Positions 7,701 to 64,000 of a DNA stretch of 64,000 nt are shown here, piece after piece. The position numbers and the translations under genes are program-made. The notes under the pieces are model-generated. The model saw nothing but the letters and a program-made list of their open reading frames with translations. It ran no database searches and was not told the origin of the DNA. This DNA comes from an uncultured virus (IMG/VR IMGVR_UViG_3300045125_000130) (taxonomy: Duplodnaviria > Heunggongvirae > Uroviricota > Caudoviricetes), in IMG/VR virus record IMGVR_UViG_3300045125_000130; one strand, written 5' to 3'. Position 1 is the stretch's first letter. Each line of letters begins with the position of its first letter.

Positions 7701-8133
7701 TTGATCAGTTCGATTGTTTGATTTGGAATAAAGAGATGTATTGTTATTATATACCTGGCTCAGACAAAGAATAGAAATAAGTTCGTGCGGTTGGATCTAA
7801 ACCGGTCTAGAACCCAGAAACGTTTTATTTGTATCGCCACCTGGCGCATCATCCGATATGGTTGCGGAATTCCTTCTGGTGTAGTTAATGAAACATTATT
7901 ACTGTTAATATTCGGATCAATCTGATATTTTGATTTGCCATCTTTAATAGTTGCTACTGCATATGATTTTACAACTTTAAGAGTATGTTCGTTGAAATCT
8001 TCTCCATCTACAAATGATATTGTTTTATTGTGCCAAGAGGCTTTAAAACAATTGTTACTCTATCATTAGGAACGGGAGGGTCTGTAATCTCTGATAAAAC
8101 TTCTAAAGTTTCTTTTGGTAAAGAATTTGCCAT
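4799..8133 (-). CDS. Baseplate/tail-tube initiator-like protein with long N-terminal extension (frameshifted, ~1100 aa)
   Basis: Starts MANSLPKETLEV. The C-terminal half has PFSFQDMRTGEILSFHAFIENMQD...GFGRVEPTHIYKSTSRT..F...WLKINKLLTFVYPQY...SPLIRMRVGD...GIAGFITRLDFDW...PMACKI, a tube-like baseplate domain. Confidence 0.65.
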
Positions 8134-8144
8134 GTAGATAACTA

Positions 8145-8356
8145 CTAACCATCTTTAATTTCTATAACATCATTTTTTTCAATTGTAGTTGATATAACAT
8201 TAATTGCTTCTTGAACAGGTTTTAATAATTTGTTTTCAGTTTCATCCATCAGATTTTTGATGCGTTCAATTAGCAATGGTTTTTGATCGTCTGGAAACTG
8301 ATCAAATATTTTACGATTTATTGTTCATTTTTCATCAATTCATCAAACATTGACAT
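8145..8356 (-). CDS. Small hypothetical protein downstream of tape measure
   Basis: MSMFDELMKNEQ..., preceded by an AAGGA SD; one frameshift. Confidence 0.5.
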
Positions 8357-8369
8357 ATGTATTTCCTTA

Positions 8370-46844: not shown

Positions 46845-48560
46845 ATGAGCAATCAAACTCCTAGTCAACGAGTTGTTTTCTTTCCTAAAGCCATGAAGAA
46901 CTTTATAAAGGAGCTACAGTCATTACAAACTTTTCTTAGCTTCTACCATGGGTCCATCGGTCACTCCGTTATTATCGATATGGAAACCGGTCCTCCGCTT
47001 ATAACAAGAAGCAGTTACTGTAGCAAAATCGATTAATCTTAAAGACAAACTTCAATCTATGGGAGCTGAACTCCTTAAAGAAGTTGCATCTAAAATAAAT
47101 GATATTGCAGGAGATGGTACCATAACCGCTACTGTATTAGGTCATGCTATCTTCACAGAAGGTCTTAAGATGATTTCCACAGGACGTTCTGCTATCGATA
47201 TTAAAAAAGGAATGGATTATGCTACGGACATTGTTATCAAACATCTTCGACAAACTTCTATCCCTCTTTCCTCAAGAGGATATCATTAATGTTGGAACAA
47301 TCTCTGCTAATGGTGATCGTTCTATCGGTGAGTTATTGGCTACTGCAATAGAACGTGTAGGCAATGACGGCATAATAACAGTAGAACCAGCCAAGAGCGT
47401 TGAAACGACCCTTGATATTGTCGAGGGTATGCAAATTAGACAGCGGCTATGTTTCACCATTCTCATTACAAATTCAGAACGTGCTACATGTGAACTCCCA
47501 AAAGAGACCCATACGTTCTAATGACGCCTAATAAGATATCTTCAATACAAGATATTGTTGGTTTATTAGAAGGCGTTCTTAAACCTCACGTCCCTTCTTA
47601 TTATCGCAGACGATGTAGAAGGTGAAGCACTTCATACCCTTATCGTTAACAAAACAAAGGAGGATTGTTAGGTTTGTACGATTAAAGCAAGCTATGGTGA
47701 GCATCGTGCAGATATTCTTTCCGATATTCAAACGTTAACAGGCGGTTTAGTATTTAATAGCGCAACTGATTTAACTCTTAAAAAGGCAAATCTTAATCAT
47801 CTTGGTTCCGCTAAAAGGTTATTGTAGGACGTAATACAACCACAATCATTAGCGACCTTGATGGAGATCGTAAGACAGCTCTAGAAGACCGTATAAAGGC
47901 TCTTAGAACCTCTTTGACAGAAGATAAGACCTTGGATGCCCTCCACACGTTGACAAATACCGTAAAGGCTTTGAAGGCTCTCTGGTGGCGTTGCTGTGAT
48001 TAAGGTTGGCGGTTCAACCGAAGTAGAGATTTTAGAAAAGAAAGATAGAGTGGAGGATACGTATTAAATCGACATTGGTACTTCACGCAAGAAGGTATTG
48101 TTCCTGGGGTGGTACTGCTCTTTACTACTCTGCTAATACTCTCCAGAGAACGTATAAAAGCTATATCTACTTTTGCATAACCAAGATGAATAGCTGGTAT
48201 GGAAATTATCGCCAACGTTTGTGAATATCCGCTTAACTTCATTATTCAAACATGCAGCGCCTCACCAGACGTTTGTTAAACAAAGATTAAACTGATATAC
48301 CGGACATAAGGTATTCTATATCGATACAGAAAATGCCGATGTAGAAGATTTAGTTTCTGCTGTAAGACATTTAGTAAAATGAACACAAAATAAAGATGAA
48401 CGTCGTTTGGTTATAATGCTACTAAAGGAACATATGGAGATTTGGTAGCAGAAGGTATAATGAATCAGTTAAGTTTTAAGATATGCATTGGAGCACGCAG
48501 TTAGCGTTATTGGTCTAACTCTATCCTGTAACTCTGTAGTAAACGAAGAGGAAGAATTGA
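46845..48560 (+). CDS. groEL: Chaperonin GroEL (frameshifted)
   Basis: [109 protein letters not shown]. Confidence 0.92.
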
Positions 48561-49810: not shown

Positions 49811-50062
49811 AACGCTTAAATATATAAAAACACAAAAGCCAAAGCCGCGAAGGTGGCTTACATCTGCTATTATATCACTTTTCATTTCGTGATCTACTTC
49901 CCTCATATAATCCATTGTTTGTTCGATCGGCGTTTACCGGTGGAGGAGCACTTGGTATAGGCAACTGTACTCTATTTGTAGAGGCTGTTGCTGTTGCTCT
50001 CGCTCTCTTATCGTATTCTTTACCCATTCCCAAAAATCTGGATTATCCATAACACCCTCCTA

Positions 50063-50622
50063 CTATAAGTAGGAGAGTGCTGCACGACGAAGTGCTTTGC
50101 AAAACCAATATCATATAGAGCAATTCCACAACTAATGCTCACATTATGAATCGTTATTCAACCCAAGAATAGGAATGGTTACAACGCTATGACTAACGTT
50201 AAGAATAGGATCTGGAACACCAGACTTTTTCACTACCAAAGAATAGAATAGGATTATCCGGATATCGGAAATGTCGAATATCATGGCTTTCCAAAGTTAT
50301 CACGCCGCTCGAAAGAAACAATGTTCCTATCCTTCATGCCCTCAATAAAAGCATCAAGAGTAGCCCAACGCTTAAGATGCCGCTTTTCAAGAAAGCGTCA
50401 GAGTAGATAGCGCACCCTTCTCATGGAAACCATTCAACCTCCACTAGATATGAATATCTCGCACAAGAAAGTTATGGGCGGTTCTAATCATGCCGCCGAT
50501 ATTAAACTCATTCTTTGAACCGAAGATTACGCAACGCTTACAGGTTGCCTGCGCTTCATCCAAGGCATCACCTGGAATGGCCATCACGGGTTAGTCCAGA
50601 AAGATCCAGGTCCGATTGACAT
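50063..50622 (-). CDS. SpoU/TrmH-family RNA 2'-O-methyltransferase
   Basis: SKNEFNIGGMIRTAHNF (motif 1), ILFFGSEKSGVP (motif 2), VTIPILGLN..HNVSISCGIALYD (motif 3). Confidence 0.8.
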
Positions 50623-50657
50623 ACTTTATCTCTGCATTATTCCAATAAGGGGTTTTC

Positions 50658-50925
50658 TTAAAACGTTCTGAAAAAGACTGAAAACTGTTCTGTGGATAGT
50701 TTGGCAGAGTTTGGGGTTTTCTTATTGAAGTTATAACGAAAATCTTGAATATATGCTCTACAAATACAAAGAGCGGCTTCTATACGATGCCGCTCCTTAT
50801 ATGTTGGCTTAAATCCACCGATTACCAAACAAAACTGTTTAGGCTCAATCGTCGTCCCGATCTCGGCTTCGGGGTCCACGGGACTTATTGCGTCGGGCGT
50901 TATTATCACGGCGGAAGCTTCATTG
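50658..50925 (-). CDS. Hypothetical protein
   Basis: 83-aa ORF between infA and the TrmH-family gene. Confidence 0.4.
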
Positions 50926-50929
50926 TTCT

Positions 50930-51200
50930 CTACCGAAGCGCGTAATTATCTCGGGCAGCGTTAATCCGGAAAGTATTACGTCCCATGCTCGTATCATATG
51001 GAGAAACCTCTAGCTTAACTCGGTCCCCTACCTGCAAATCAATCTTATTCTGTCGCATCTTGCCAGAAAGCTTTGCAGTTACCACCTGATCGGTGCCCTC
51101 AGCCCGAACACTGAAAAATATCCCGTAGAATGATCCAAAACCACACCAACCATTTCCATACGATCCGTCATTTATCTGCTTGCCTTTTCTATCTTTCTTT
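50930..51200 (-). CDS. infA: Translation initiation factor IF-1
   Basis: FSVRAEGTDQVVTAKLSGKMRQNKIDLQVGDRVKLEVSPYDTSMGRxTFR, the S1/IF-1 signature. N-terminus frameshifted. Confidence 0.88.
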
Positions 51201-51216
51201 TTGTTGTTAACCGAAA

Positions 51217-51292
51217 CGTTCCCGGCAGGATTTGAACCTGCGACCAACGAGGTAGAAGCTCGTTGGCTCTATCCGGACTGAGCTGCAGGAAC
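51217..51292 (-). tRNA. tRNA-Arg(UCU)
   Basis: GTTCCTG acceptor; anticodon arm ACGAG-CTTCTAC-CTCGT; T-arm GCAGG-TTCAAAT-CCTGC; no encoded CCA. Confidence 0.9.
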
Positions 51293-51340
51293 CTGATATA
51301 TCTAATCTAACAGATGCCAAGATCAAATATATACCATTAT

Positions 51341-51722
51341 TCACCACCGATAAATGTAGCTATCTCCCTCATAAACCGGATCCAAGTTATTGCTATATCA
51401 GATTAGCATTAATCAGAACGTACATCCAGGCGGGTTCACTTTCATCCCGAAGCTGCACACTACTCGATTATAAAAATGACCATTACTTTCAAGTCGATCC
51501 AGACGAGCCAGCGTCATATCATCCACTTCATAGAAGCTCCCCATAAATAGAAGCAGAAAGAGCGCCATGATACTCCTTAACCACTCCTGGGAAACCACCA
51601 AGCGAACGCATAATCCAAGTTTCATCCTGGGTAATACGCTCTCCGATAAAACGGCTTTCACAAAGTAGCTGATTATTATGCCGCCCTCGCTTCAAACTAC
51701 CATATACAAAAACCCGATGCAT
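51341..51722 (-). CDS. Gamma-glutamylcyclotransferase (GGCT/AIG2-like)
   Basis: MHRVFVYGSLKRGRHNNQLL...LGGFPGV...IYGExYEVDDMTLARLDRLE...FYNR. Confidence 0.88.
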
Positions 51723-51824
51723 TCAGATTCTCCTGGCAGGGCTCAATCTTAACGTAGCCCGCCTAATCATATCATTAACAAACGTATTGGCGTTGGTGGA
51801 TTTGCGGAGATAGTCTCAAAAGCC

Positions 51825-53061
51825 TTATAAGCCCCTTTCTGCCACTTCCTCCATATGAACCCTGACGCTCGGAGCGTTCGTTAGACTGTCAATCCAAAGC
51901 CGCTCCACAAACTCCCGGTGATTAGCGGCTCGGATATCCCAATGAAAGAACCGATAAATCACGACGCAAGCTCCGCAGCACGCTCCTCGATAGTAGCTCA
52001 CGACACCAGCCGACAGACCACGAAGCGCCGTGTCACCAGCGGGAACGCTCGGCATGGTCGCCGCCGAACGAACACCACCAACGGGCGTGCCACTCTGCAC
52101 CTGCGCCTGGATTTCAAGGAAACGGCTATTGCTAACGCTAACCGAATAGGTGTTCCAAATGCGGCTCTTACGGACGGTGATGCCCCACTTGCGGCGGATC
52201 TCGCTCATGCACGCCGGGATGCTCGCCGCCGAATAACCCGAAATCTCCGCAAGACGGCTCGAGGGTAAGGCTCGGATAATCATTGACAAGAGCGTTAGAG
52301 ATCTTGAACAGACCCCTTATCACGGGCGTTCGTGCGACCGGCAGGACGACCACGACGCAGGGCGGGCGACCGCCGGAGTAGCAGAACGCCACAAGCTGAC
52401 GGCTAACCTCAACGAAGTTAAGGACGAAAAGAACCCAATTACTCCAATCTTGGTGCTGCTCACCGTGCCGCTGTGCTGGCGGAACTCAATGGTATTCTGG
52501 CGAACGTAGGCAGCGAGGTTAACCTTGAAGTAACGATCCCAGATTCGGGCGCTCATTGCCGCCGTGTTAGTGCAACCCGCAAAGCGCCGTGCCGTAGTTA
52601 CGCATCCGGTAGCCCATACCCTTGAGGTGGGTGTTATTATCCTGGCGACGGCTAATCGGCATGAAGCTATCGATCACGCTCTCATGCTCGGCGTAACAGC
52701 TTGACCCGATCATCTTGATCTCGTCAATGTTAAGATCGGGAAGCGCGCCAACGCGTGAACGTGAAGCCCACTGGGTCTTGTTAGCGGTAGCGCCAGCAGC
52801 GTTAAGCGCATCGGCAACCTTCTTAAGCGCCGTGCATGCCGCAGCACCACGGAGGATAGGGAAACAACCTCAATACCAGCGTTTCCACGGTTATCACGCA
52901 CTGGACGCATCCGTAACGATGCTTGCCAATGATTGCGGGTATTGTGATTGTAGCCTTCGATCTGCGCTCGGCCAGCCAGCGCACGGATAGCCTCACAAGC
53001 CGCCTGCCGGCAATCCCGATACACATCAATCTCAACACCAAACGTCCGAATTCGTCATCAT
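51825..53061 (-). CDS. Putative amidoligase (COOH-NH2 ligase, Amidoligase_2-like) with C-terminal HTH-like region
   Basis: FGVEIE-like start, W.IVTDAS, IEVVSPIL, GLHVH, RYFKVNL...TIEFRQHSGT; C-terminal SRLAEISGYSAASIPACMSEIRR. Confidence 0.82.
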
Positions 53062-53069
53062 ATGTATAC

Positions 53070-53098
53070 AGAATAGCAGATGTATCAGATTTTTTAAA
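53070..53098 (-). promoter_or_regulatory. sigma70-like promoter of the amidoligase gene
   Basis: TTTAAA-N17-TATTCT-N8-ATG. Confidence 0.5.
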
Positions 53099-53756
53099 GG
53101 TATTTATTTTTCCCTGTTTTTATGGGGTTTTATGAGATTTTGAGGTATCAAGTAAGCGGAAAATCGGACCTCGAACCGACAACGGCAACTTTGGAAGGAG
53201 TTGAACTCTACCGATGAGCTATTTCCGCAGAGGAGTCTTGATTTATTGCGGGTGATGGGTTTGCACCACCACGATCTTTGCGTTATAGAGCGCAACAGAC
53301 GCGCTACTTCTCCAGCCCGCTATATAAAAGATAGAACGGGTCTATCTTTTGTTGCAAGCTCTCCCGTAGTCATCTTCATATCTTCTTATATCTTTTTCAT
53401 CACAGACACCCATTTGAACTTCAATAAGTACTAAATCTTTGGCTGCTATGGCGTCCTATGTTTATGTTTTTTTGGAATAAAAATATGCACCACCAGTACC
53501 TATGTGGCGTTCCATTTCATCAAGTTGAGTGAGACCAAAACCACTTATTACAACCCACAATGTTCATCTCGTTGAGGAATGTGATTGTAAAGATATTCTG
53601 CAACCTTTTTTTATGAAAAGCTTTTTTAACTTTATAATTTTTCACCCTCATGGATGGTTTTCAAGCCATCCCCAAGGTCTTTCTTCACGATTAGATACTT
53701 CAGATGTCTCTTCTTTTTTTACTGACTTTTGATTTTGCCATACAGCTAACTAAATA

Positions 53757-54792
53757 CTATAGAACGATCAACAAAACTTAAATCATCTGCACCTTCCGAG
53801 AAAGCAATATGGTTCATATCCAAAGAATATGTCTTACGATCTATTAATTTTTGAAATTCTTGTTTGAACCAGTCAGATTGTCTCCTCATTTTCAATTATT
53901 CCCCAAGCACCAACCTGATTAATACATCGCCCTTGTTAACAATAAGGGTATTTACACCATTCATACGGATACCACGTTCAATGATATTCCAGTTTAACCA
54001 GTTTACCTTCTACCAGTAGTAGCACCAAACTCCTGTCCTGCACCTCTTGGATGCGGTTAAAAACGTCTCCCTGCGGGCTGGAACTGCTTGGCTCCTACAT
54101 ATGTGTCATAAGCCTTTACAACGCCATAAACGTTTCTTGCGTGACTTATGATTTAAAGCCGTTGTTTAACAAACCTCCTATACCACAATGGCTGCTGGTA
54201 ACATAAGGATAATCGCCCCAATCAATGTCCAAATCAAATGATTGAGCACCTTCTGCCAATATTCTAACTGGCTTGCCGGTATAGGAACTCCTGATACATA
54301 TCTGTTATATAAGATTGTAGAACAGGATCGGTTTCTGCTCTTAAACCTTTACGAGAGTATTTTGAAGAATAAGCGGGACCATTGCGGTTTTGGTTGTTCC
54401 AATACGTGTATCGCCGCTATCTTCCAGTCAAATGATCATCGGTAACAAGATGGACATTATTAGCTTCAATACCAACGACCAGCACCTTCTTGCCGAGACT
54501 GTCCACTCTAAATACTTGATTTCCTCGAGGGTAGATTTAGAGGTTTCTGCAACGCTACCGGGTCCAACAACGGAACGGACTCCATGAAATACTCCGGAAG
54601 GAACAAGATGGGTAACAAACTGCCTTCCATTCATGGTATGTGGTGTGACCTGCATTGCCACCACCATTAAATCTTCAACAATGGGTTATATTTCACGTTT
54701 AGCAAGTAGGGCCGTGAGATACTTTACCTTTACGCTTTATCACCGTGTGCTAAATCTATTACAACATCGATCTTAATATATTTGTGTTCCAT
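53757..54792 (-). CDS. purA: Adenylosuccinate synthetase (short type, ~345 aa, frameshifted)
   Basis: HGDxx[52 protein letters not shown]...NWLNW, VNKGDVL. Confidence 0.88.
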
Positions 54793-54836
54793 GCTGCACA
54801 AGAATACATGAAAGATTGGTAAATGTTTTAACTGTA

Positions 54837-54916
54837 TCGAGGTAGCAGGACTCGAACTTCTGCGCTTTCTTGTGCACCCCAAAACAAGTGCCACTTAGCC
54901 GCTAGGCGATACCTCG
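54837..54916 (-). tRNA. tRNA-Pro(UGG) (with apparent read errors)
   Basis: CGAGGTA/TACCTCG acceptor with A73; anticodon arm CTTGT-TTTGGGG..ACAAG; GTTCGAGTC T-loop. Confidence 0.8.
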
Positions 54917-55249
54917 TTATACATCCGAAAAAATAATGCAATACGTCAACTATACTTCTTACAAGATGTATAGAGTGACCCTAAGAGGCTAGCAAAAGTT
55001 CAAATTGAATAATAAAAATATCTTTTGGATCCACAACACACTTTGCTCAATCATGTTGCACCATTACCGGAACAATCGGGTTTTCGAACGCATTCTTTTG
55101 TTAGAATGTCTGCAATATTGCCTTGCGCTGCGGCAGCGGTTTCCTGCGGCGGTTGCTGCACCTTTAAGAGCTCTACTTGTATCACGCATAAGCAGCTTGT
55201 TTCTATCTAGGTCTGTGTCTCGGCATCACGTAACCTCTCTGCGGAGGTT

Positions 55250-55624
55250 GCGGCTTGATTAACGTTAGTTTGTATGTCAGCATTTGCCTTTTGAACATCT
55301 CGAGTTCTTATAGACATTCTTGTGGCATCGCCTTTCATAGTGTTAATGCCTTTTTCTACATTGAAAAATTTTTTCTACATATCAGAACTTTTTGTTCAAT
55401 ATTTTCTAAAGCAGAATCAGCTTCGCTTTCTCTTTCAGAACGAGAACCGGTACCTGTTCTAGCTGTCGAAGACGTTGCAGTTGTTTGACGACCACCGGTA
55501 GTTGAACTAGTTGTAGTTGCTCCACGGATTTACTTGCAGTAGATACTGTTGATATGGCTTCAATCTCTTTCAAATAGTTTCTAACAACTATAGAAACATA
55601 TTCTTTTAATAATGATTTGTTCAT
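55250..55624 (-). CDS. Hypothetical protein
   Basis: MNKSLLKEYVSIVVRNYLKE..., Thr/Ser-rich; TAATTA 6 nt upstream. Confidence 0.5.
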
Positions 55625-55648
55625 AACCATTAATTAGCTGGGTTATGT

Positions 55649-56910
55649 TCAAAACTGTTCTGTTTCCGTACTATCTTTCAATGCTACCGTTGAAGCTCCA
55701 TTTTGAACCGTATTCTGAACATAATCAAAATATCCTGTTCCTACAAAGCTTTGATGCTTAACTGCACGGAAACCTTCATCCTGCATTGCACAATTCTTCT
55801 TTGCTGCAATTCAGAGAAACCTAACATACCATTCTTCTTATATGCTTTACTTAACTCAAACATAGAAGTATTAAGGGAATGAAAACCGGCAAGAGTTATA
55901 ATTGAAACGATATCCCATAGCAGCTAACTCTTCTCGGAATGTCTGCATCTGACCACGATCCAAATATTTTGACCAATTAAAACTTGGGTGAGCAGTTATA
56001 AGCAAGTAGCTTACCTGGATACACCTTATGAATACCTCTGCAAAGGCTCTAGCAACCTCTAAATCGGTTTGCTTGTCTCCATCCATAAAAGGTCCAGCAT
56101 AAGGCGCATAAGCCAATCCACGGGCTATACAGCTCTCTAATCCATTACGGATACGATAGAAGCCTTCTGCTGTTCTCTCTCCTGTAAGGAACCGCTTATC
56201 ATTTTCATCATGATCGCTGGTAATAAGATTTGCAGCCTCTGCATCTGTTCTGGCAATAACAAGCGTTGGAACGTCTAATACGTCCGCCGCTAATCTTGCT
56301 GCAATAAGCTTCGCAATAGCTTCTCCGGTTGGAACAAGAACCTACCACCTAAATGACCACACTTCTTTGCGCTGGATAGTTGATCCTCAAAATGAACACC
56401 GGCAGCGCCGGCCTCAATCATCATCTTCATTAACTCATAAGCATTTAGATTGCCACCAAAGCCGGCTTCTGCATCGGCTACTATTGGTTGCATCCAATCC
56501 TTGCTATTATCCCCATTTACGCTATCAATCTGTTCACAACGTAAGAGGGCGTTATTAATCTTTTTACAACAGCAGGAACGCTATCGATTGGATAGAGAGA
56601 TTGATCTGGATACATTTGACCAGCGAGATTGCATCTGCTGCTACTTGCCAGCCGCTCAAATAGATGGCTTCTAATCCAGCAGCTACTTCTTGAATAGCTT
56701 GATTACCAGTTAAGGCACCAAGAGCAGCTACGTATGGTTGATTATTTAATCGGCGCCAAAGTTTATTTGCTCCAAGTCTGGCAAGGGAATGTTCTACAAT
56801 AACCTTACCACGAAGTTTTAAAACATCTTCGGCTGTATATGGACGCTTGATCCCGGTCCAACGTGGGTTCTCTTCCAATCTTTTTCTAACGTTTCTTTGT
56901 TATAAGTCAT
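55649..56910 (-). CDS. aceA: Isocitrate lyase
   Basis: [82 protein letters not shown] (catalytic KKCGH), [29 protein letters not shown]. Confidence 0.95.
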
Positions 56911-56916
56911 GGTGGT

Positions 56917-56945
56917 ATTATGCTACAACGAGATATATTTGTAAA
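56917..56945 (-). promoter_or_regulatory. sigma70-like promoter of aceA, leaderless
   Basis: TTTACA-N17-CATAAT-N6-ATG. Confidence 0.65.
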
Positions 56946-56977
56946 AGAAAACCCCAATGCGATTAAACATTGGGGTT
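56943..56977 (-). terminator. Intrinsic terminator after tRNA-Asn
   Basis: ACCCCAATG/CATTGGGGT stem followed by TTTCTTTT on the minus strand. Confidence 0.75.
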
Positions 56978-56981
56978 AAAA

Positions 56982-57101
56982 CTCCGACCTTGGACCCGAA
57001 CCAGGGACCATTCGGTTATCCTTGAGGTTTTTGGGTTTGCACCAACAGAACACGTATTCAACCTCCACAGCCGAAGGCTCTACCAACTGAGCTAAATCGG
57101 A
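56982..57101 (-). tRNA. tRNA-Asn(GUU) with a 48-nt insertion (57019-57066) inside the anticodon
   Basis: TCCGATT acceptor, G73, D-arm GCTCAGTTGGTAGAGC, anticodon arm TTCGG-CTGT[48 nt]TAA-CCGAA, T-arm CCTGG-TTCGGGT-CCA. Confidence 0.8.
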
Positions 57102-57169
57102 ATATAAACCCAGCATAATACTCATTACATTAAAATGTTCAAACCCATTAGTATTATGCGGGGTTATAA

Positions 57170-57489
57170 AATGATAGATACAAGTTCCATAAACAATAAA
57201 AGTAGGCTTGCTTGCTTAACGCTTCTATCTGCGTTCTCTTTCCCGAGAAGGGGCTTTGTCACCATTACTATCTAGAAAGGTATCTAAATCTTCACGGCTA
57301 GTCAGGTCGCTTCTGACCATCCCTAATCATCATGTTAGAGCTTAATATTAATATAACCGGCTTGGCAGACTTTTACCTCTGACTTTCTGTATTACCATTA
57401 TCACCGATAATACATACTTACGGCACCTTTATCCCATTGCCTTATCGGACCTCAAAGACGATGAACGGTCCATCGGATAGGATATCAAA
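57170..57489 (-). ncRNA. Candidate large structured ncRNA (~320 nt), family unknown
   Basis: ORF-free gap between two tRNAs with at least 8 short helices and 3-4 loop-to-distal complementarities (see findings). Confidence 0.6.
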
Positions 57490-57505
57490 TATTCAGTTTT
57501 CAAGA
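57490..57505 (-). promoter_or_regulatory. boxA-like antitermination element
   Basis: TCTTGAAAACTGAATA just 3' of tRNA-Ala, resembling the (T)CTTTGAAAACTGAAT boxA of bacterial rRNA spacers. Confidence 0.55.
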
Positions 57506-57512
57506 TACCAAG

Positions 57513-57585
57513 TGGACGAGATCGGGGACGATCCGACAACCCCCGGCTTGCAAAGCCGGTGCTCTCCCGATTGAGCTACTCGCCC
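57513..57585 (-). tRNA. tRNA-Ala(UGC)
   Basis: GGGCGAG/CTCGTCC acceptor with G3:U70 and A73; anticodon arm CCGGC-TTTGCAA-GCCGG; atypical T-loop ATCGTCC. Confidence 0.9.
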
Positions 57586-57601
57586 ATCACTTCACTCTCT
57601 A

Positions 57602-57630
57602 AATATAGTAGAGGAAGTTAAGTTTGTAAA
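57602..57630 (-). promoter_or_regulatory. sigma70-like promoter for the tRNA-Ala/ncRNA unit
   Basis: TTTACA-N17-TATATT. Confidence 0.65.
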
Positions 57631-57726
57631 CTATTTTTCAGTTAACCCAAACAGCCATTGCGGTTGTAAGAAAAACTGCAACACCAACAATAATCAACAT
57701 CATTCTATCTTCTATATTATATCCTT

Positions 57727-58581
57727 TCATTCCTCACCATTATCGACAAGCTTCTTAACATTCTTTCCGCCAGGAAGCCGAACCTTCTTGTTAAGACGCC
57801 GAGTATTACGCTGCTGCGTGTAATTGAAATGACGGAAAGCACTTTCTACTTCTTGAAACATCTTTTCTGCCTCATACTGCGTAGTAACACTACCAATCCG
57901 GCTACGATAAGTTTCAAGCTTTCCAGTTAGAACACCAACAGCCATTGCAATATCCATGATAGCCTGTGTATGCTGGGCACGCTTTGCTGCAATGAAATCG
58001 TTAACACTATCGGTATCAAGAGTAGCTCCTTTAATCTCTGCAACCTTACGGCGCTTTAGATCAAGCCAAGCATTTTCATACTGCTTGAATAGATACCGCA
58101 AAAGCTTATCATGCTCGGCATTACTGCCCCACGACGTTTTAACACCATGACGAAGAAATGCCTTGATATCACGCTCAATATAGGCATCGCCATTAGGAAC
58201 AAAATCAAAAATGGGACCGTTAAAGTTATCCGGATCCAAACGGTTTCCTGCGGTAAATGAAAGCACCGAATATCGGATGGTGTATGCAATATCACCGGAA
58301 CCTACATACCGACACGTGATCGGATTGCATGGCTGTCCCTGCCACCGAATAGGATTAAATGTCACGGTCTTTCCAGGCTGATCATTGATAACGTTATCCA
58401 AGATACTGGTAGAACCCCATCGATATAGACCACGACGGGAACGATACTTGTTTAGATACTCAATCTGTTCCAGGGCGGTCTTTGAGGTAAACTTATCTTC
58501 GGAACAAATGAAATTAAGAAGATCGCTGGAATTGATACTATATACAGACTTTGAACGGGGCATTTTCTTTTCTTTCTTCAC
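57727..58581 (-). CDS. Hypothetical protein (284 aa)
   Basis: Intact ORF; no recognised motif. Confidence 0.75.
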   Translation of the reverse strand: MKKEKKMPRSKSVYSINSSDLLNFICSEDKFTSKTALEQIEYLNKYRSRRGLYRWGSTSILDNVINDQPGKTVTFNPIRWQGQPCNPITCRYVGSGDIAYTIRYSVLSFTAGNRLDPDNFNGPIFDFVPNGDAYIERDIKAFLRHGVKTSWGSNAEHDKLLRYLFKQYENAWLDLKRRKVAEIKGATLDTDSVNDFIAAKRAQHTQAIMDIAMAVGVLTGKLETYRSRIGSVTTQYEAEKMFQEVESAFRHFNYTQQRNTRRLNKKVRLPGGKNVKKLVDNGEE

Positions 58582-58886
58582 TTAAGGGGGGAACAATAAC
58601 AACGGGGACTAAGGCGATGTGAAAGATGGATCCAACCACTCTTTTCATTGCAAAGAATATTCAACTGATATGAACCAGCAAGAGTGTCACCACTTATACC
58701 GCCAATTACGGTCTTATAATCAGGCTTTGCAAGTAGCATAAAAATGCTACCCTTTTCAATACGATGCCGGGGCTCTTGACCCGGAATAAAAGGGTTAAAT
58801 ACGTTATTATTAAGCCAACGGATATTATTACGTCGGTGCGTCTTTTGCTTAACCTCAACCAAATCGGTCTTTTGGCTATATAGCAT
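58578..58886 (-). CDS. Hypothetical protein
   Basis: Intact 102-aa ORF overlapping the next start. Confidence 0.6.
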   Translation of the reverse strand: MLYSQKTDLVEVKQKTHRRNNIRWLNNNVFNPFIPGQEPRHRIEKGSIFMLLAKPDYKTVIGGISGDTLAGSYQLNILCNEKSGWIHLSHRLSPRCYCSPLK

Positions 58887-59010
58887 AACGAATCCTGTAA
58901 GCTGATAAAGGCGTCCTACCTTCCAGAAACGCTTGCCGCCTGAATATGATCAACATGAGCCAATCGCCCACGTTGAGGAAAGTTTTTAGTGGTAGGACTA
59001 TCCATATGGA

Positions 59011-59157
59011 TCACCAGTTATCGGGATTGCGATATTCGTGCTTCTTTGCCTTCTCACGGCGGAAACGACGATCACGCATCGGTCCACCCTTGAGATTGAA
59101 AAGCATAAACTCCGTCACAGCGGAACGTCGCTTGGGCATGGTATTCTTCTTTGCCAT
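59011..59157 (-). CDS. Small basic hypothetical protein
   Basis: MAKKNTMPKRR...GGPMRDRRFRREK; leaderless promoter TTGAAA-N17-TATATT-N7-ATG at 59165-59193. Confidence 0.6.
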   Translation of the reverse strand: MAKKNTMPKRRSAVTEFMLFNLKGGPMRDRRFRREKAKKHEYRNPDNW

Positions 59158-59297
59158 AATAGTCAATATAACATATTGATGGAGATATTTCAACCAATCA
59201 TTTTATTCCTCAAAACCAAGCATAGAAACGGTTAAAAATGGATAAACAAATGAAAACCCAAACAAAACGTATCGATTGTCTTTTAGAACGTAAAAGC

Positions 59298-59328
59298 AAA
59301 AAACCTATCCAAGCTAAAGGATAGGTTA
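59298..59328 (-). terminator. Probable intrinsic terminator downstream of tRNA-Glu
   Basis: ACCTATCC/GGATAGGT stem followed by a T-run on the minus strand. Confidence 0.6.
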
Positions 59329-59362
59329 ATGCCATAAGGACTAATGAGAGGTAGTATAACAT

Positions 59363-59434
59363 TGACTCTACGGGAATCTGAATCCCGATAGCAAGAGTGA
59401 AAATCTTGAGTCCTAACCGTTAGACGATAGAGCC
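59363..59434 (-). tRNA. tRNA-Glu(UUC)
   Basis: GGCTCTA/TAGAGTC acceptor; anticodon arm CAAGA-TTTTCAC-TCTTG; promoter TTTACA-N17-TATATT at 59450-59478. Confidence 0.88.
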
Positions 59435-59478
59435 GTTGTTTATGTATTCAATATAGCAAAGGTGTTCTGGAATGTAAA

Positions 59479-59685
59479 CTATTTTTTTGCTGCCCACCAA
59501 ACTAATGCCCAATAAAGTATGGCAGAGCAACAACTCAATCCGGAAACAAAAAAAGTAATGGCGGCTGTATTATCTCCTTGAAGATATTGACTAACCGCCA
59601 TTACAAACTGAAACATCATCATTAATACGTTGATTGAAAGATTTAAGCCTGGATGCTTTAATATCTTTAACAACATATCCCGCAT
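59479..59685 (-). CDS. Small membrane protein, holin candidate
   Basis: 68 aa, two hydrophobic stretches, basic C-terminus (AAKK), MRDM possible dual start. Confidence 0.45.
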   Translation of the reverse strand: MRDMLLKILKHPGLNLSINVLMMMFQFVMAVSQYLQGDNTAAITFFVSGLSCCSAILYWALVWWAAKK

Positions 59686-59693
59686 GTATTTAA

Positions 59694-60338
59694 TTACTCA
59701 GGTAAACTCCAAAATTGATTTAAAGTTTCTCCGCATTCTATTGGTGTCCAACCTCTTCTTATAAGAGTATTTCTACGGAAATATCTGGCACCCCAATGAT
59801 CTATTCGAACATTACAAGGATTTTCCGGATTTGTTCTTAATAAGGTTCCAACGTGCTCATAAACTTGTCGGAAACCTTCTCGTCTGCTGGACCAAGGAAT
59901 TGTTGTTGTTTCTCTCCAACCTCTTGGTTCTCTTAAATCTGGACGCAAGTGAGCAACCCACCTGTGATTGTCTGTTCTATTAAGATTGAATGATAAAGGC
60001 GCATAGGCTCTCATAATGCCTAACGTTACTTCTCCTGTTCTACTTCTTGTGCGAAGGGCATGGTATATCATTGTGCAATCGTTTGTTCTTGTTTGAAAGC
60101 CGGCTTCGCTAATACAAATGCGAGCAAGAGCTAAATGAACATTTCTATTAACCGGGATTGGTTCTGGAACCGGGGCATCTAAACTTGGATCATAGCAAAC
60201 ATGTTCGCTGTTATCATAACATGTAACCGTTAATGGATCTGCTGGTGGCGTTACCGTTGCTACTTCATCACGATAACCTGTGGATGATCCACCTATTAAC
60301 ATTGATGTAGCTATTATAGCAAATATTAGTTTTCTCAT
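59694..60338 (-). CDS. Secreted cell-wall hydrolase candidate (SleB/Hydrolase_2-like)
   Basis: Signal-peptide-like N-terminus MRKLIFAIIATSMLIGG; LALARICISEAG resembles the SleB catalytic Glu helix; GGAG SD. Confidence 0.5.
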   Translation of the reverse strand: MRKLIFAIIATSMLIGGSSTGYRDEVATVTPPADPLTVTCYDNSEHVCYDPSLDAPVPEPIPVNRNVHLALARICISEAGFQTRTNDCTMIYHALRTRSRTGEVTLGIMRAYAPLSFNLNRTDNHRWVAHLRPDLREPRGWRETTTIPWSSRREGFRQVYEHVGTLLRTNPENPCNVRIDHWGARYFRRNTLIRRGWTPIECGETLNQFWSLPE

Positions 60339-60429
60339 ATTTTATCTCCTAAAAAGCAAAAAACAGGCTACTTTTTAGGGTTAGCCCGCTTTCAGCTATT
60401 TGTTGGTTCCTTTTAAGTATATCCCACGA

Positions 60430-61753
60430 TCACGTATTTGACTTTAGTGTAGGGAAGAATACTACATCCCGTAGATTTGGGACACCGAAAGAAGAGAATC
60501 AAACGATCAATGCCAACGCCACAACCACTCTGCGGAGGCATACCGTGCTCCATACATTCAAGATAATCTTCCTCAATCATCATGGCTTCATCATCACCAT
60601 TTGCTCGCTCCTGCATCTGCTGCTCAAGTAGCTGCCGCTGTAGGACGGGATCGGTAAGCTCTGTGTAGCACTTGACCACTTCCCAGCCTTCTACAATAAA
60701 CTGCCATTGCTGAACCGTATTAGGGTCATTGGGATGCCTTGCAGCCATTGGAGACATATGAGCCGGATAATCAGTCACAAATACCGGATCAATAAGCTTT
60801 GGACGAACTGCGGTCTTAAATAGCTGATCTGCTTCCTTTGCACTCATATCATCTGGATTACGTCCAGTATGTTCCTTGAATAGTTCACGATATTCTACAA
60901 CGGGTGCCTGTGCCCATCGATCAAGCTTTGAACGTGGTTCATCACCAATATCATCAAATCTTGACCACGTAGCCTTCCAAAGATAATAAAGCATATTCCG
61001 GAAAAGCTTCATATTGTCGCAATAATCCCAATATGCTGCATACCATTCAAGAGAAGTAAACTCTTGCAAATGGGATGGATCGATACCTTCATTACGAAAC
61101 TGCTTGCCAATCTCAAACACACGATCAAAACCAGCAACAGTCATACGCTTAAGATAAGTCTCTGGCGCAATACGAAGATAGAAATCTGCATCAAGAGCAT
61201 TATGGTGAGTAATGAATGGACGAGCCTGGGCGCCACTTGCTTGCGGCGTTAGGATTGGAGTTTCTACCTCCATAAACTGCTGTTCTTCTAGATAACTCCG
61301 AATAATACTAATAATCTTACTTCTGTTTCTGAATAGCTTGCGGCTCTCCGGATCTGTGGCACATTCCAGCCAACGCTTGCGCCTTACAAGCTCTGGATCG
61401 GTCATACCATGCCACTTGTCAGGGAAACCTACGGAAGCCTTTTGGAGCCTCTGGAAGCCCTTATTGACCAATACAGTCTTTTCTCCGGTAGAGGTAGTCC
61501 ATACTTCGCCAGTAACGGCAACAATATCTCCAATATGGGGAATAGCAGACCACTCCTTAAAGTTTGCTTCATCCATCATCTTCTTATTAAAAGCAAACTG
61601 GATCTTTGCATCGCTATTATCGGAAATATGACCGAAGGCTACACCACCCATTTTACGATAAGACAATACTCTGCCAATAACGTGAACTGGCTCACCGTCG
61701 TTATATTGGCGAATATGTCGAGCAAAAACCTGATCTTCTGTATTAGAAAACAT
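60430..61753 (-). CDS. lysS: Lysyl-tRNA synthetase (class II)
   Basis: OB-fold GRVLSYRKMGGVAF, FMEVETPIL, GAQARPFITHHNALD, YLRIAPETYLKR, FEIGKQFRNEGID.SHLQEFT.LE.Y, GMPPQSGCGVGIDRL. After one indel it ends NLRDVVFFPTLKSNT*. Confidence 0.95.
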
Positions 61754-61768
61754 ATATCCTAAAACGTT

Positions 61769-61794
61769 AAAACCTGCTATAAGCATAGCAGGGT
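61769..61794 (-). terminator. Hairpin terminator overlapping the putative lysS -10 box
   Basis: CCTGCTAT-GCTT-ATAGCAGG followed by TTTT on the minus strand; TATGCT lies within the hairpin. Confidence 0.5.
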
Positions 61795-61817
61795 CGGTTT
61801 AGAAAATAAACTTTTAT

Positions 61818-62261
61818 TCAGCCAGCAGCCAGGAAATGACCACGTGCATTATCCCGAAGGCGATTAAAATTATCGGGAAACACTCTACGAAAAAGATTAA
61901 CGCTCCATACGCACGCCTTATGCTCGCTTGATCCCTTGAGAACATGACCCCACTCGTGTAGAAAAGTTAGAACCGAAAGCTTACCGTGAAGCGTGATAGT
62001 CTTATTGAGAGGATCAAAGTTAGAACGCCCGCTGCCCTCATTCAGTAGGACGCTGGGATCAAACTTCAATTCAATATCCAAACGATAAATCCGGCAAAGC
62101 TCAATATGAAGCCACCCAAACTTATCCATGCGACTGATAAGATCCCCCTTCCAGGGGTAGAAACGCTTGAAGCGGTTTAGAGCCTCTAGCGTTTCACTCT
62201 TATACTTTACATCACGGATAACCTCGTCCAGCGAAGCGGGATAATCAGCGAGGCTTGACAT
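61818..62261 (-). CDS. Zincin-like metallopeptidase domain protein
   Basis: TFLHEWGH (HExxH) followed by SEHKA. Confidence 0.7.
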   Translation of the reverse strand: MSSLADYPASLDEVIRDVKYKSETLEALNRFKRFYPWKGDLISRMDKFGWLHIELCRIYRLDIELKFDPSVLLNEGSGRSNFDPLNKTITLHGKLSVLTFLHEWGHVLKGSSEHKACVWSVNLFRRVFPDNFNRLRDNARGHFLAAG

Positions 62262-62315
62262 AATCTAAAACCGCTCCGGATCCGAGAAAGAAAAACAGGA
62301 TAAGGAACAAACCCA

Positions 62316-62789
62316 TATCAATCGCCGCTATCAATCTCAAACTTCGCACCGCAATCATTGCACTCATAACGATTGTAGCAGCGCCCGAGGTTAGCAATAT
62401 GCCGATAGCTATTGTGCGCGGCACCGATTAAGCACATCACGACGGAACGTGTCGAGAGTATCAAGCGCCGAAGCGATCTCCTCCGGAGCGGTGACGGTGA
62501 CAGACTTAGACGGCGGGCTCATACCGGGGCCGCTAATCTGCACACTAAGACGGAGCCCACCAAAACGGTTAACACCGCCGGATGCCGCATACACCGGATA
62601 ACAACTAAACTGCCACTCCGGAACATAATACGGTCGGGCAACCTCGGCAGCATAGAACGGGGTAAAGGTCTTATCATTCCAGGGCTGCGGAGCAGGGCAC
62701 GGCAAAGCAACATCGCCACGCAGGCGAAGCGTAGCAAAGGTGTCGGTGAGGGCGTCAGCGTACTGCTCAATGTTTTCGATCTTGTTCAT
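62316..62789 (-). CDS. GC-rich hypothetical protein with C-terminal Cys/His (Zn-finger-like) tail
   Basis: MNKIENIEQY.... After one indel it continues C.HNSYRHIANLGRCYNRYECNDCGAKFEIDSGD*; leaderless promoter TTGAAA-N17-TAATAT-N7-ATG at 62797-62825. Confidence 0.6.
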
Positions 62790-62830
62790 GCTTAATATAT
62801 TAGCATAAGAAAAGATGATTTTCAAGTAAT

Positions 62831-62855
62831 AAAAAAGCCCTATAAAATAGGGCTT
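62831..62855 (-). terminator. Intrinsic terminator after tmRNA
   Basis: AAGCCCTAT/ATAGGGCTT stem followed by a T-run. Confidence 0.8.
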
Positions 62856-62858
62856 AAA

Positions 62859-63224
62859 TGGAGATATCGGGAGTCGAACCCGAGGTCCAGAAGAGATCCA
62901 AATGATTTGTTGTCACATAGCGTAGCCCTTTTATAAATTACCCATCATAAGCTTAACCAAAGAGCGGGTTGTATATGATATGGCTTCAAAGTTTAAACCT
63001 TGGCAGTAGAAGCTATCCCTACAAGGTCGAGTTTGTTTAATAACAATCTAATAGATCCTCAAACGGCGTATCTATTAAACCGCTTGCTGTCAAGCAGCAA
63101 GAGCGTAAGAGCTATAAGAACTATCGTTTGCACTTACTTTTGTTTACGGTTTTTGAGCGGTCATAAACGCCCGCTGCTATGCAAATCAATTATCACTTCC
63201 CCTGTCGAAACCAATATTATCCCC
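62859..63224 (-). ncRNA. ssrA: tmRNA, tag peptide ANDSSYSSYALAA*
   Basis: 5' GGGGATAATATTGGTTTCGACAGG, 3' GGACCTCGGGTTCGACTCCCGATATCTCCA with G3:U pair; resume codon GCA after AAGT; tag ORF at 63090-63131. Confidence 0.95.
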
Positions 63225-63591
63225 TTTTCTTTTCTATATACGGAAAGATGCTATAAGTAGTTCCATGTTTCTTAAAGACCCATGTACCTAAAACTGTTCC
63301 ATAAACTACCGATTTAGATTTCAATACAGCCGCAAGACCACTTTGGTTCATCCAGTATCTTGCTCCTGTTTGGGTATCTTCCCAAAGTATCTTACCACCG
63401 TAATACATATTGATAAACTTTAAATTGGCATCAAATATTTCATTTTCACGCCACTCATATTTCTGCTCCCAATTTGGTTTTCGCATTTCATATAAAGTAA
63501 TTTGATGTGGAACACTACCTGCTGGAAGATTGTTAATCTTATCGGCTTCCTTTATAAATGGTATTTTGTAATCTACTTTTTTACGAGGCAT
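63217..63591 (-). CDS. Hypothetical protein
   Basis: Intact 124-aa ORF whose stop overlaps the tmRNA 5' end; TACTTA upstream. Confidence 0.7.
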   Translation of the reverse strand: MPRKKVDYKIPFIKEADKINNLPAGSVPHQITLYEMRKPNWEQKYEWRENEIFDANLKFINMYYGGKILWEDTQTGARYWMNQSGLAAVLKSKSVVYGTVLGTWVFKKHGTTYSIFPYIEKKRG

Positions 63592-63619
63592 ATACTTCTT
63601 ACCTACGTATAAGTAGTGT

Positions 63620-64000
63620 TTATTCTAGAAGGCTAATCTTCGGCAAAGAAATAGTAAAACGTTTCCATACCCATCTTCTCCACTTACGAAGAACACGTCT
63701 TAACCACCATAGGGGTCTACGTTCATATCCATCCTTCTTTTCATGGCATGGAACACAAAGAGGCTGTGCATTGTCTGCTGTATTCGTGCCACCCTGATTT
63801 ATTGGAATAATATGATCCAAGGTAAGCTTATGCCTACCTTTAACGTTACAAACAGCACAACCCCACTCGGAAGCTTCTAATACCATCAACCATTGACGGG
63901 TAGAAATACGACCGGAGGGCTTCTCTTATTTCTTTTGGAGCGATTATTGGAACGCAATCTTAATCTCTCGGCGTTCCAACATTCCCAACATATATGTTCA
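63620..64000 (-). CDS. HNH endonuclease (5' part outside the window)
   Basis: CAVC...LTLDHIIPINQGGTNTADNAQPLCVPCHEKK. Confidence 0.88.

Follow-up and report, generated by a model that had tools for sequence, protein, structure and literature searches.

The window analysed here is the whole 64,000-nucleotide (nt) stretch of DNA recorded as the uncultured virus IMGVR_UViG_3300045125_000130, and its minus strand carries, at positions 56982-57101, a tRNA-Asn(GUU) gene which is interrupted inside the anticodon by a 48-nt insert. The gene consists of exon 1 (57067-57101; 35 nt, tRNA nt 1-35, ending in CUGU, that is C32 U33 G34 U35), the insert (57019-57066) and exon 2 (56982-57018; 37 nt, tRNA nt 36-73, starting with UAA), and it runs to the discriminator base G73 with no encoded CCA. 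An earlier note on this DNA, made from the letters alone, had proposed a tRNA-Asn split between positions 35 and 36 by 48 nt, with a loop reading CUGU[48 nt]UAA, a U1-A72 pair and G73. The loop was as claimed on direct reading, the U1-A72 pair and G73 are present, and the split was borne out by syntenic orthologues in related phage contigs (given L numbers below), which read CTGT/TAA and have near-identical exons; exon 1 was aligned with its counterparts in L007, L015, L008 and L017. Removal of the insert leaves the anticodon GUU in a 7-nt loop, CUGUUAA, as in the intronless orthologues.

The interrupted gene was undetected by ARAGORN at default settings and by an Rfam search over positions 50000-64000, and ARAGORN in mitochondrial mode found no tRNA in the precursor. 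When introns were allowed, a check suggested by the earlier note, ARAGORN returned c[56980,57103] as a tRNA gene containing an intron of 48 nt, but it set the cut 1-2 nt earlier and consequently named the gene tRNA-Ile(GAU). This name and the His reading, which had been raised and rejected in the earlier note, are both ruled out by the intronless syntenic orthologues, which are tRNA-Asn(GTT). As default tRNA finders miss interrupted genes, phage tRNA inventories undercount.

Against the Rfam tRNA model the window copy scored 17 bits (E 0.31), while the L005 and L009 copies, scored across the insert, reached 51.4 bits (threshold 29), and all 21 of the 21 expected stem pairs form in the L005 cloverleaf. 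The low score of the window copy is due to three defects in the T arm and acceptor stem, namely A58G, a C50:A64 mismatch (window letter G64A) and one missing base in exon 2. An 821-nt short-read contig which matches the window, flanks included, is canonical at exactly these three sites and A58 was read in all four public runs aligned to the locus; given these reads and the many fragmented genes of the window, the defects are probably assembly errors. The description of a normal tRNA body therefore holds for the natural allele but not for the window letters.

The insert itself was identical in two IMG/VR contigs, in one metagenome contig from ENA and in contigs of all four public runs, and no alternative letter was read inside 57019-57066 in those runs. 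An assembly or sequencing artefact might be suspected in a window as error-prone as this one, with its fragmented portal, isocitrate lyase and other genes and its T-arm defects, but the recovery of the same insert in independent assemblies refutes it, leaving the artefact a negligible probability and upholding the view that the insert is not read noise. DNA contigs in two of the four runs (X1 and X13) skip exactly 57019-57066; these are intronless DNA alleles present in the same samples and not products of splicing. In 15 studies of freshwater, sediment and estuary metagenomes, 19 runs contained at least half of 17 words sampled from the locus. Among the runs matching these words none is listed as RNA; X20, flagged 'RNA?', has an unspliced contig and is probably DNA.

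Exact and gapped pattern searches of IMG/VR returned the insert in the same two contigs and in no other context. Inserts of 4-34 nt within these exons were found in 0 IMG/VR contigs, inserts of 35-65 nt in the same two contigs only, and inserts of 30-60 nt with these exons, among metagenomes, in L010 only. The insert was not found in the genomes of 185,579 species, and no second copy was found in the window or in the related contigs.

A 284-amino acid (aa) ORF of no assigned function (57727-58581, minus strand) was used as a synteny anchor to retrieve related loci, giving eight related contigs, of which seven reach the tRNA-Asn position (L018 ends too early). With the window, these seven make up eight informative lineages, L005 and L010 being counted as one. 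The order tRNA-Glu, two ORFs, tRNA-Ala, tRNA-Asn is found in all of them, except that no tRNA-Ala was called in L008; in the window the upstream neighbour, tRNA-Ala(UGC), lies at 57512-57585 on the minus strand. At the U35/U36 bond, three lineages are empty (L006, L007 and L015, all called as uninterrupted tRNA-Asn(gtt)), two carry a 206/207-nt insertion (L008 and L017) and three carry the 48-nt insert (the window, L005 and L009). All insertions lie at CTGT/TAA, and it is because the intronless orthologues read across this point that the insert is placed between U35 and U36. Four positions separate the tRNA-Asn of L007 from the window exons after correction. A comparison with orthologous tRNA-Asn genes, which the earlier note had recommended, thus provided uninterrupted copies that confirm the boundaries.

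The insertion in L008 was identified as a group I intron (Rfam RF00028, 66.9 bits, E 6e-15) with a GCUGU/GCAGC guide pairing and a terminal G. ORF-less group I introns split the phage tRNA-Asn between anticodon bases 35 and 36 in both L008 (6119-6399) and L017 (4301-4580). The two introns agree at 191 of 208 aligned columns (92%) compared to 54 of 73 (74%) for their exons, with exon differences to within 6-9 nt of the junction. Since the introns match far better than the exons, inserts at this bond move between diverged tRNA-Asn genes and carry short flanks with them, and on the alignments U35/U36 is an insertion site common to several lineages. In bacteria, group I introns are found in the anticodon loops of tRNA-Leu, fMet, Ile and Arg; to our knowledge tRNA-Asn is not among their classic bacterial hosts.

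The use of the same insertion bond as the L008 and L017 introns might suggest that the 48-nt insert derives by degeneration from the group I intron found there in relatives. This is very improbable. Rfam gave no group I match at E values up to 10 for either the L005 or the window stretch, in line with the original dismissal of a group I intron; the insert, although preceded by a U, ends in A and not G, direct reading revealed no guide sequence able to pair with GCUGU, and its ends are unlike the ends of the L008 and L017 introns. In addition, no inserts of intermediate length were found in IMG/VR or the metagenomes.

The 48 nt are predicted to form, from first base to last, the 'top half' of a tRNA, that is, a 7-bp acceptor-like stem stacked on a T-like arm (all positions that follow are on the minus strand). 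The 5' strand of the acceptor-like stem (insert nt 1-7, GGAGGUU; 57060-57066) makes six of seven pairs with the 3' strand (nt 38-44, AACCUCA; 57023-57029), which continues straight from the T-arm-like hairpin of nt 21-37 (57030-57046). In that hairpin nt 21-25 pair with nt 33-37 (4/5 pairs), no linker separates the stem from the acceptor-like strand, and the 7-nt loop UGCAAAC (nt 26-32) fits U-N-C-R-A-N-N. A small hairpin, GAAU-ACGU-GUUC (nt 8-19; 57048-57059), appears in some near-optimal folds, and a single-stranded 4-nt tail, AGGA (nt 45-48; 57019-57022), lies, on direct reading, where a tRNA has its discriminator and CCA. Of the fold first proposed for the insert, the outer stem GAGGUU/AACCUC (6 bp) proved robust, being present in all near-optimal folds, but the interior is ambiguous and the three-way junction is only one of several near-optimal solutions (-9.1 versus a minimum free energy of -9.3 kcal/mol for the insert alone). 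The proposed GGU-GCAA-ACC hairpin with a GNRA tetraloop is better drawn as a 7-nt T-loop-like hairpin, UUGG-UGCAAAC-CCAA.

The strict top-half geometry, ending at the insert boundaries, occurred in 0 of 200,000 mononucleotide and 1 of 50,000 dinucleotide shuffles, and a relaxed form in 33 of 200,000 and 21 of 50,000 respectively, frequencies which overstate the significance of the pattern as it was defined after the sequence had been seen. The whole precursor folds no better than shuffled sequence (z -0.68; 49 of 200 shuffles as stable), and since the insert shows no sequence variation no covariation signal is obtainable. The T-like hairpin shares 13 exact nt with the T arm of the window tRNA-Met (53256-53268; E 0.097), and a local alignment of the insert to the tRNA-Met of the related sequence G001 was equalled by 6 of 500 shuffles, a figure uncorrected for the choice among seven tRNAs. 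Position 55 of the T-like loop is G, as in the phage's own tRNA-Met, whose T loop reads UGCAAAY in both the window and G001 and is itself unusual in having G at this position. Similarity of the insert to the D arm of the interrupted tRNA itself, or to the phage tRNAs other than tRNA-Met, was no better than in shuffles.

Rfam offered no match to the insert from ribozymes or any other family, and the 19 bits reached by a plastid 3'-UTR family over the T-like hairpin (E ~2) are at chance level. A bulge-helix-bulge intron, of which the earlier note had seen no clear sign, was likewise rejected: once orthology has set the two junctions, 0-2 of 4 pairs form between the 4-nt strands that flank the bulges and would make up the central helix, and at most 3 of 4 in the mirrored geometry. 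A short ORF starting inside the insert (GGAGG, 8 nt, GTG) was considered on direct reading and dropped as unsupported.

The window shares 73-85% DNA identity with G001 and the related sequence G002 over the region in common, and the intergenic flanks are approximately 78% identical or unalignable. Between the window and G001 the insert shows no change (0/48). The neighbouring tRNAs differ at 5/74 (Arg), 8/74 (Ala), 10/72 (Gly), 12/73 (Met) and 13/73 (Glu) positions, and the tRNA-Asn exons at four real positions (5, 26, 43 and 68), all of them compatible with the cloverleaf; two of these make up a compensatory pair, A5-U68 versus C5-G68, between two insert-bearing lineages. Either the insert has spread recently, with conversion tracts shorter than 9 nt, or it is constrained at least as strongly as a tRNA, and the data do not separate the two. 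Recent spread is plausible, because the group I introns of L008 and L017 show equally short tracts.

Genes for small HNH endonucleases were found repeatedly at the tRNA-Asn locus. In L005 and L010 a 129-aa HNH gene (phrog_2255, 2.2e-31) abuts the insert-bearing tRNA-Asn. A 187-aa homologue (46% identity over 85 aa to the L005 protein) lies directly upstream of the intron-bearing tRNA-Asn in L008, and a 227-aa HNH gene lies on the opposite strand beside the intronless tRNA-Asn of L006. The L005 gene is contained within a 429-nt cassette bounded at both ends by a perfect 18-nt direct repeat, which consists of 4 upstream nt plus tRNA nt 1-14, and the 48-nt insert lies 21 nt downstream of the cassette end. 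The cassette is absent from the same place in the window and G002.

A tblastn search with the L005 HNH protein matched 366 phage records, in 47 of which the match spans 80% or more of the query, and 14 were examined; these 14 represent about five phage groups and so are not 14 independent observations. In 9 of the 14 the homologue lies no more than 70 nt from an intact tRNA-Asn(GTT): Yersinia phage fHe-Yen9-04, Erwinia phage Kaldavass, Xanthomonas phage XbC2, Cronobacter phage CR3, Klebsiella phages KP13-7 and phiKp_21, Escherichia phage WPEC5, and Lak-A1 and Lak-C1. In a tenth record, Lak-B5, it lies 5 nt from a tRNA-Asn which is split at U35/U36 by 141 nt, an insert in which no group I match was found; Lak-B1 and Lak-B3 are identical to Lak-B5 at the split gene. 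Lak-B5 also has a second, intact tRNA-Asn (L045 307-378) 5.3 kb upstream of the split copy (L034 1281-1496, MK250024.1). In the remaining 4 of the 14 (DAC15, a Vibrio phage, an Aeromonas phage and FelixO1) the homologue lies between other tRNA genes. To judge from these gene positions, free-standing HNH homing endonucleases have a hot spot at the tRNA-Asn locus.

The reading proposed here, with a probability of roughly 0.55, is one of a homing-endonuclease system directed against the phage tRNA-Asn gene, with the 48-nt insert, at the DNA level, as its protective component. During mixed infections, intronless tRNA-Asn alleles would be cut by HNH proteins of the type described above, within or close to the anticodon loop, and an insertion at the U35/U36 bond would break the nuclease target. 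The insert-bearing allele would thereby be spared and then copied into the cut genomes through recombinational repair. In these phages the bond is taken by either an ORF-less self-splicing group I intron or the 48-nt element. In L005 and L010 the insert still sits beside an HNH cassette, while in the window and L009 the nuclease gene is absent and the insert remains; loss of the nuclease gene through recombination between the 18-nt repeats would give the window arrangement.

As outlined in a report on collaborative homing (PMC3984707), insertion at a homing site makes the allele immune and the homing site is centred on the insertion site; in L005 the 48-nt insert would take the place of the intron of such a pair, from which it differs in having no ribozyme and no self-splicing. 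The closest parallel is T4 mobA/gene 60, for which the available account (bioRxiv 10.1101/2022.08.31.505936) describes a 50-nt gene 60 insert approximately 20 bases from the MobA nick site, which blocks nicking, and phages that have lost the endonuclease and kept the insert. The two systems are alike in having a free-standing HNH gene beside a conserved target gene, a cassette that brings along a stretch of the target, an insert some 50 nt long and about 20 nt away (which protects the allele in the T4 case), relatives without the nuclease but with the insert, and close genomes without the element, again as far as that account goes (bioRxiv 10.1101/2022.08.31.505936). They differ in that the target here is a tRNA gene, which ribosomal hopping cannot rescue, that the HNH protein is likened to MobA by arrangement and protection is deduced, and that the present insert has a tRNA-like fold. 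On balance, the best-supported comparison is that the insert would be a tRNA-gene counterpart of the T4 gene 60 insert, alternating with a group I intron at the same bond.

A number of points weigh against the homing proposal. The targeting of the tRNA-Asn anticodon region by the HNH proteins is suggested by gene position alone, and the window and L009 have no adjacent HNH gene. The insert is evidently not required for self-immunity, as nine intact, insert-free tRNA-Asn genes stand beside HNH homologues. A plug acting only in DNA could have any sequence, and would explain neither the tRNA-like fold (itself a pattern defined after the fact, as noted above) nor the invariance, unless the spread was very recent; and since the exons differ at positions 26 and 43, recent spread needs conversion tracts of less than 9 nt on each side. 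The invariance is itself open to chance: if the four exon changes post-date insertion and rates are equal, the probability that no change falls in the insert is (72/120)^4 = 0.13. As to rescue of the tRNA, we know of no bacterial or phage pathway for removing such an insert, and an RNase Z-type cut after the discriminator would leave GGA on exon 2. Finally Lak-B5, which has the only other non-group-I insert at the bond, has an intact spare tRNA-Asn, and this favours a 'dead copy' there.

The fate of the insert in RNA was weighed separately. Within the homing proposal, the leading guess is that tRNA-processing nucleases would cut the insert out; rejoining of the exons into a working tRNA-Asn was put at about 40%, loss of the tRNA at about 45%, and other outcomes, for example a function of the unspliced transcript or of the released 48-nt piece, at about 15%.

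Overlapping with the homing proposal is a possible but not preferred reading, that the insert is a true intron of a new kind, which exists mainly to be removed from RNA and leaves a functional tRNA-Asn. RNase P would cut at U35/G1 and an RNase E- or RNase Z-type enzyme after AGGA, and the resulting 3'-OH and 5'-phosphate ends would be sealed by an ATP-dependent RNA ligase of phage or host. Removal of exactly 48 nt restores the loop of the orthologues, all natural copies keep a perfect cloverleaf, each relative has a tRNA-Asn at this position, and the insert is invariant; the junctions are also the limits of the top-half geometry, and the 5' junction has U at its -1 and G at its +1 position. 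The gene also appears to have its own promoter and terminator. A promoter-like site, TTGAAC-16 nt-TATTAT (57115-57142, minus strand), is followed after 13 nt by the tRNA and is no more than a match to consensus (4 such sites versus 2.2 in shuffles), and a hairpin plus T run resembling an intrinsic terminator (56950-56977, minus strand) lies directly 3' of the tRNA; in the L001 counterpart the stem of this hairpin is kept through two double, compensatory changes. No second tRNA-Asn was found in the 64-kb window or in two related contigs of 53 kb and 50 kb, and the compensatory change at A5-U68/C5-G68 between insert-bearing lineages counts in the same direction.

There are also points against this reading. 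Only about 14% of each related genome is seen, and a second tRNA-Asn may lie elsewhere, as the spare intact copy of Lak-B5 illustrates; the compensatory pair may predate the insertion, since intronless L007 also has A5-U68. The 3' cut is without an obvious enzyme, the tail being AGGA and not NCCA, and no run listed among those matching the locus is an RNA run. In literature outside subscription journals no short non-group-I tRNA intron in phages was found, and no tRNA-Asn-specific HNH family; nor do we know of a bacterial or phage pathway that would process an intron of this kind. RtcB, Rnl1-type and Rnl2-type ligases were not found in four related contigs that are 14-25% complete, and the 120 window ORFs with 75 aa or more yielded neither a splicing-endonuclease nor an RtcB-type domain. 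A search for the PF09511 ligase was uninformative, as control genomes were likewise without a match. A more specific and rather doubtful version, a 'mini-tRNA intron', would add a third way of making tRNA insertions harmless to ribozymes and bulge-helix-bulge enzymes, relying on tRNA end-processing nucleases and a tRNA-repair-type ligase and originating in a homing cassette. The cellular nucleases would act on the insert through its mimicry of an acceptor/T-arm half, and the ligase would close the nick thus left in the anticodon loop of a tRNA-Asn whose remaining structure keeps it in one piece. If this were true, a homing-endonuclease cassette would have invented a protein-dependent tRNA intron in a bacterial virus.

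The opposite possibility, on which we place the same weight as on an intron of a new kind, is that the gene is disabled: the insert would never be removed, the tRNA-Asn would be lost, and the allele would hitch-hike with homing endonucleases or be protected from them, its tRNA-like shape being the relic of a tRNA fragment or of a reduced nested tRNA gene. No unknown enzyme is needed for this, phage tRNAs are accessory genes, and the Lak-B phages have a split tRNA-Asn together with an intact second copy. The 13 exact nt shared with the T arm of the phage's own tRNA-Met hint at an origin in tRNA DNA, and recent spread would account for the intact exons and invariant insert. A relic should decay, however, yet 0 of 48 positions have changed across lineages approximately 20% apart in DNA and in the four runs, and 6/7 acceptor-like and 4/5 T-like pairs are kept. 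The tRNA-Asn is retained here by every relative, so that the gene seems valued, and no decayed insert-bearing copy was seen, the defects of the window copy being probable errors.

It is unlikely that the product is instead a stable, unspliced tRNA-like RNA, either a decoy that would engage an anticodon nuclease or an enzyme that modifies or charges tRNAs, as the earlier note had in part envisaged, or a released 48-nt mini-tRNA. Such a role would suit the retention of U33-G34-U35 in place, the second CUGUU motif at insert nt 19-23, the invariance of the insert and the apparent organisation of the tRNA-Asn gene as its own transcription unit. Nothing connects the insert to a defence system, though, no partner gene co-occurs with it in three genomes, and the shared insertion site and the nuclease genes would be left unexplained.

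Homing endonucleases can settle in conserved genes only if the accompanying insertion is made harmless. The known solutions are self-splicing introns, inteins and, in T4 gene 60 alone, ribosomal hopping. Under the homing proposal the same problem would arise in a tRNA gene, with a self-splicing intron and a 48-nt non-ribozyme insert as alternative occupants of one bond. Should the insert be removed from RNA, bacterial viruses would have their first short tRNA intron that does not splice itself, and tRNA-processing and RNA-repair enzymes a new use; should it not be removed, a selfish nuclease system would be driving a disabled tRNA allele through natural phage populations at many freshwater sites.

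Bacterial tRNA group I introns resemble the present case in their insertion in or next to the anticodon and in the existence of alleles with and without them. They are, however, at least approximately 200 nt long, possess a catalytic core and are bounded by a preceding U and a terminal G, compared to an insert of 48 nt which ends in A and has no Rfam match. The protein-spliced tRNA introns of archaea and eukaryotes are likewise short anticodon-loop introns, and the insert, like them, would need an endonuclease and a ligase; they differ in the bulge-helix-bulge, absent here, in their position at 37/38 and not 35/36, and in the setting, which here is bacterial-viral (tmRNA, T4-like portal). T4 SegB and similar enzymes are encoded, as here, among phage tRNA genes and bias inheritance towards their own tRNA region. 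SegB, however, belongs to the GIY-YIG type and is not known to be associated with a protective insert inside a tRNA.

The phage is a freshwater jumbo phage of the large T4-like type: the window encodes portal and baseplate fragments, a tmRNA, a lysyl-tRNA synthetase (LysRS), an IF-1-like gene and a tRNA cluster, and CheckV rated the related contigs at 14-25% of a genome, which implies approximately 400 kb. Among cultured phages searched for close relatives, matches were limited to the tRNA-Ala. Only three ORFs of at least 250 aa are present in the 64 kb, and the portal, isocitrate lyase and other genes are fragmented, while relatives have intact versions. Fragmented genes lie at 40224-41112, 47059-47289, 54428-54667 and 55871-56878, all on the minus strand except 47059-47289, and include the T4-like portal (two pieces), isocitrate lyase (two pieces), Cpn60 and adenylosuccinate synthetase; intact counterparts are found for isocitrate lyase in L007 (6424-7689, 421 aa) and for adenylosuccinate synthetase in L005 (7355-8374). 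The window therefore seems to carry many indel errors. Stop-codon recoding was considered as the cause of the short ORFs and rejected, as no single reassigned stop opens the frames; the fragmented Pfam matches and the short-read contig point to indel errors instead.

A 457-aa class II aminoacyl-tRNA synthetase near the cluster (60413-61786, minus strand), considered as a possible asparaginyl-tRNA synthetase, was identified by NCBIfam as LysRS (442 bits). The tmRNA (tag ANDSSYSSYALAA) and the IF-1-like protein are encoded beside the tRNA cluster (62856-63224 and 50930-51247, both minus strand), and just past the tmRNA an 89-aa ORF with an HNH domain (63620-63889, minus strand; Pfam 6.6e-12) represents a further free-standing nuclease.

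The tRNA-Gly(UCC) and tRNA-Met genes lie at 53155-53228 and 53245-53322 (both minus strand), the former with an 8-nt anticodon loop and an extra T-loop G, and the latter undetected by both ARAGORN and Rfam. As the G001 copies are canonical in length, these oddities are probably indel errors. Between G001 and G002 the Glu, Asn, Pro and Gly tRNAs are identical, and the tRNA-Ala matches at 46 of 74 positions only (L019 10267-10340; L022 19115-19187), a divergence which suggests allele replacement (mosaicism) inside the cluster.

In the 14 HNH records (L029-L042) the small endonucleases (approximately 115-180 aa) always lie between tRNA genes, with the closest members of the family beside tRNA-Asn, and their hosts are diverse, including enterobacterial jumbo phages, Cronobacter phage CR3 and the Lak megaphages. 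The 141-nt insert of the Lak-B phages contains a T arm of canonical form (loop TTCGAAT) together with an acceptor-like stem of 8 bp that stops one base short of the 3' junction, and Lak-A1 and Lak-C1 have an uninterrupted gene where Lak-B has the split tRNA-Asn. ARAGORN called a tRNA-Asn(GTT) that is unannotated in the deposited records of Kaldavass (L030 2412-2486) and WPEC5 (L036 1145-1229), the latter call being 85 nt, an odd length for tRNA-Asn. With introns allowed it made two more calls, in Lak-A1 a tRNA-Ala(agc) containing an intron of 114 nt (L042 2139-2325) and in CR3 a tRNA-Glu(ctc) containing one of 6 nt (L032 1965-2044), which may be further interrupted tRNAs or false calls. None of the phage tRNAs examined encodes CCA, and in L006 a 682-aa protein with a poly(A) polymerase/CCA-adding head domain is encoded at 6420-8468, approximately 0.9 kb downstream of the tRNA-Asn.

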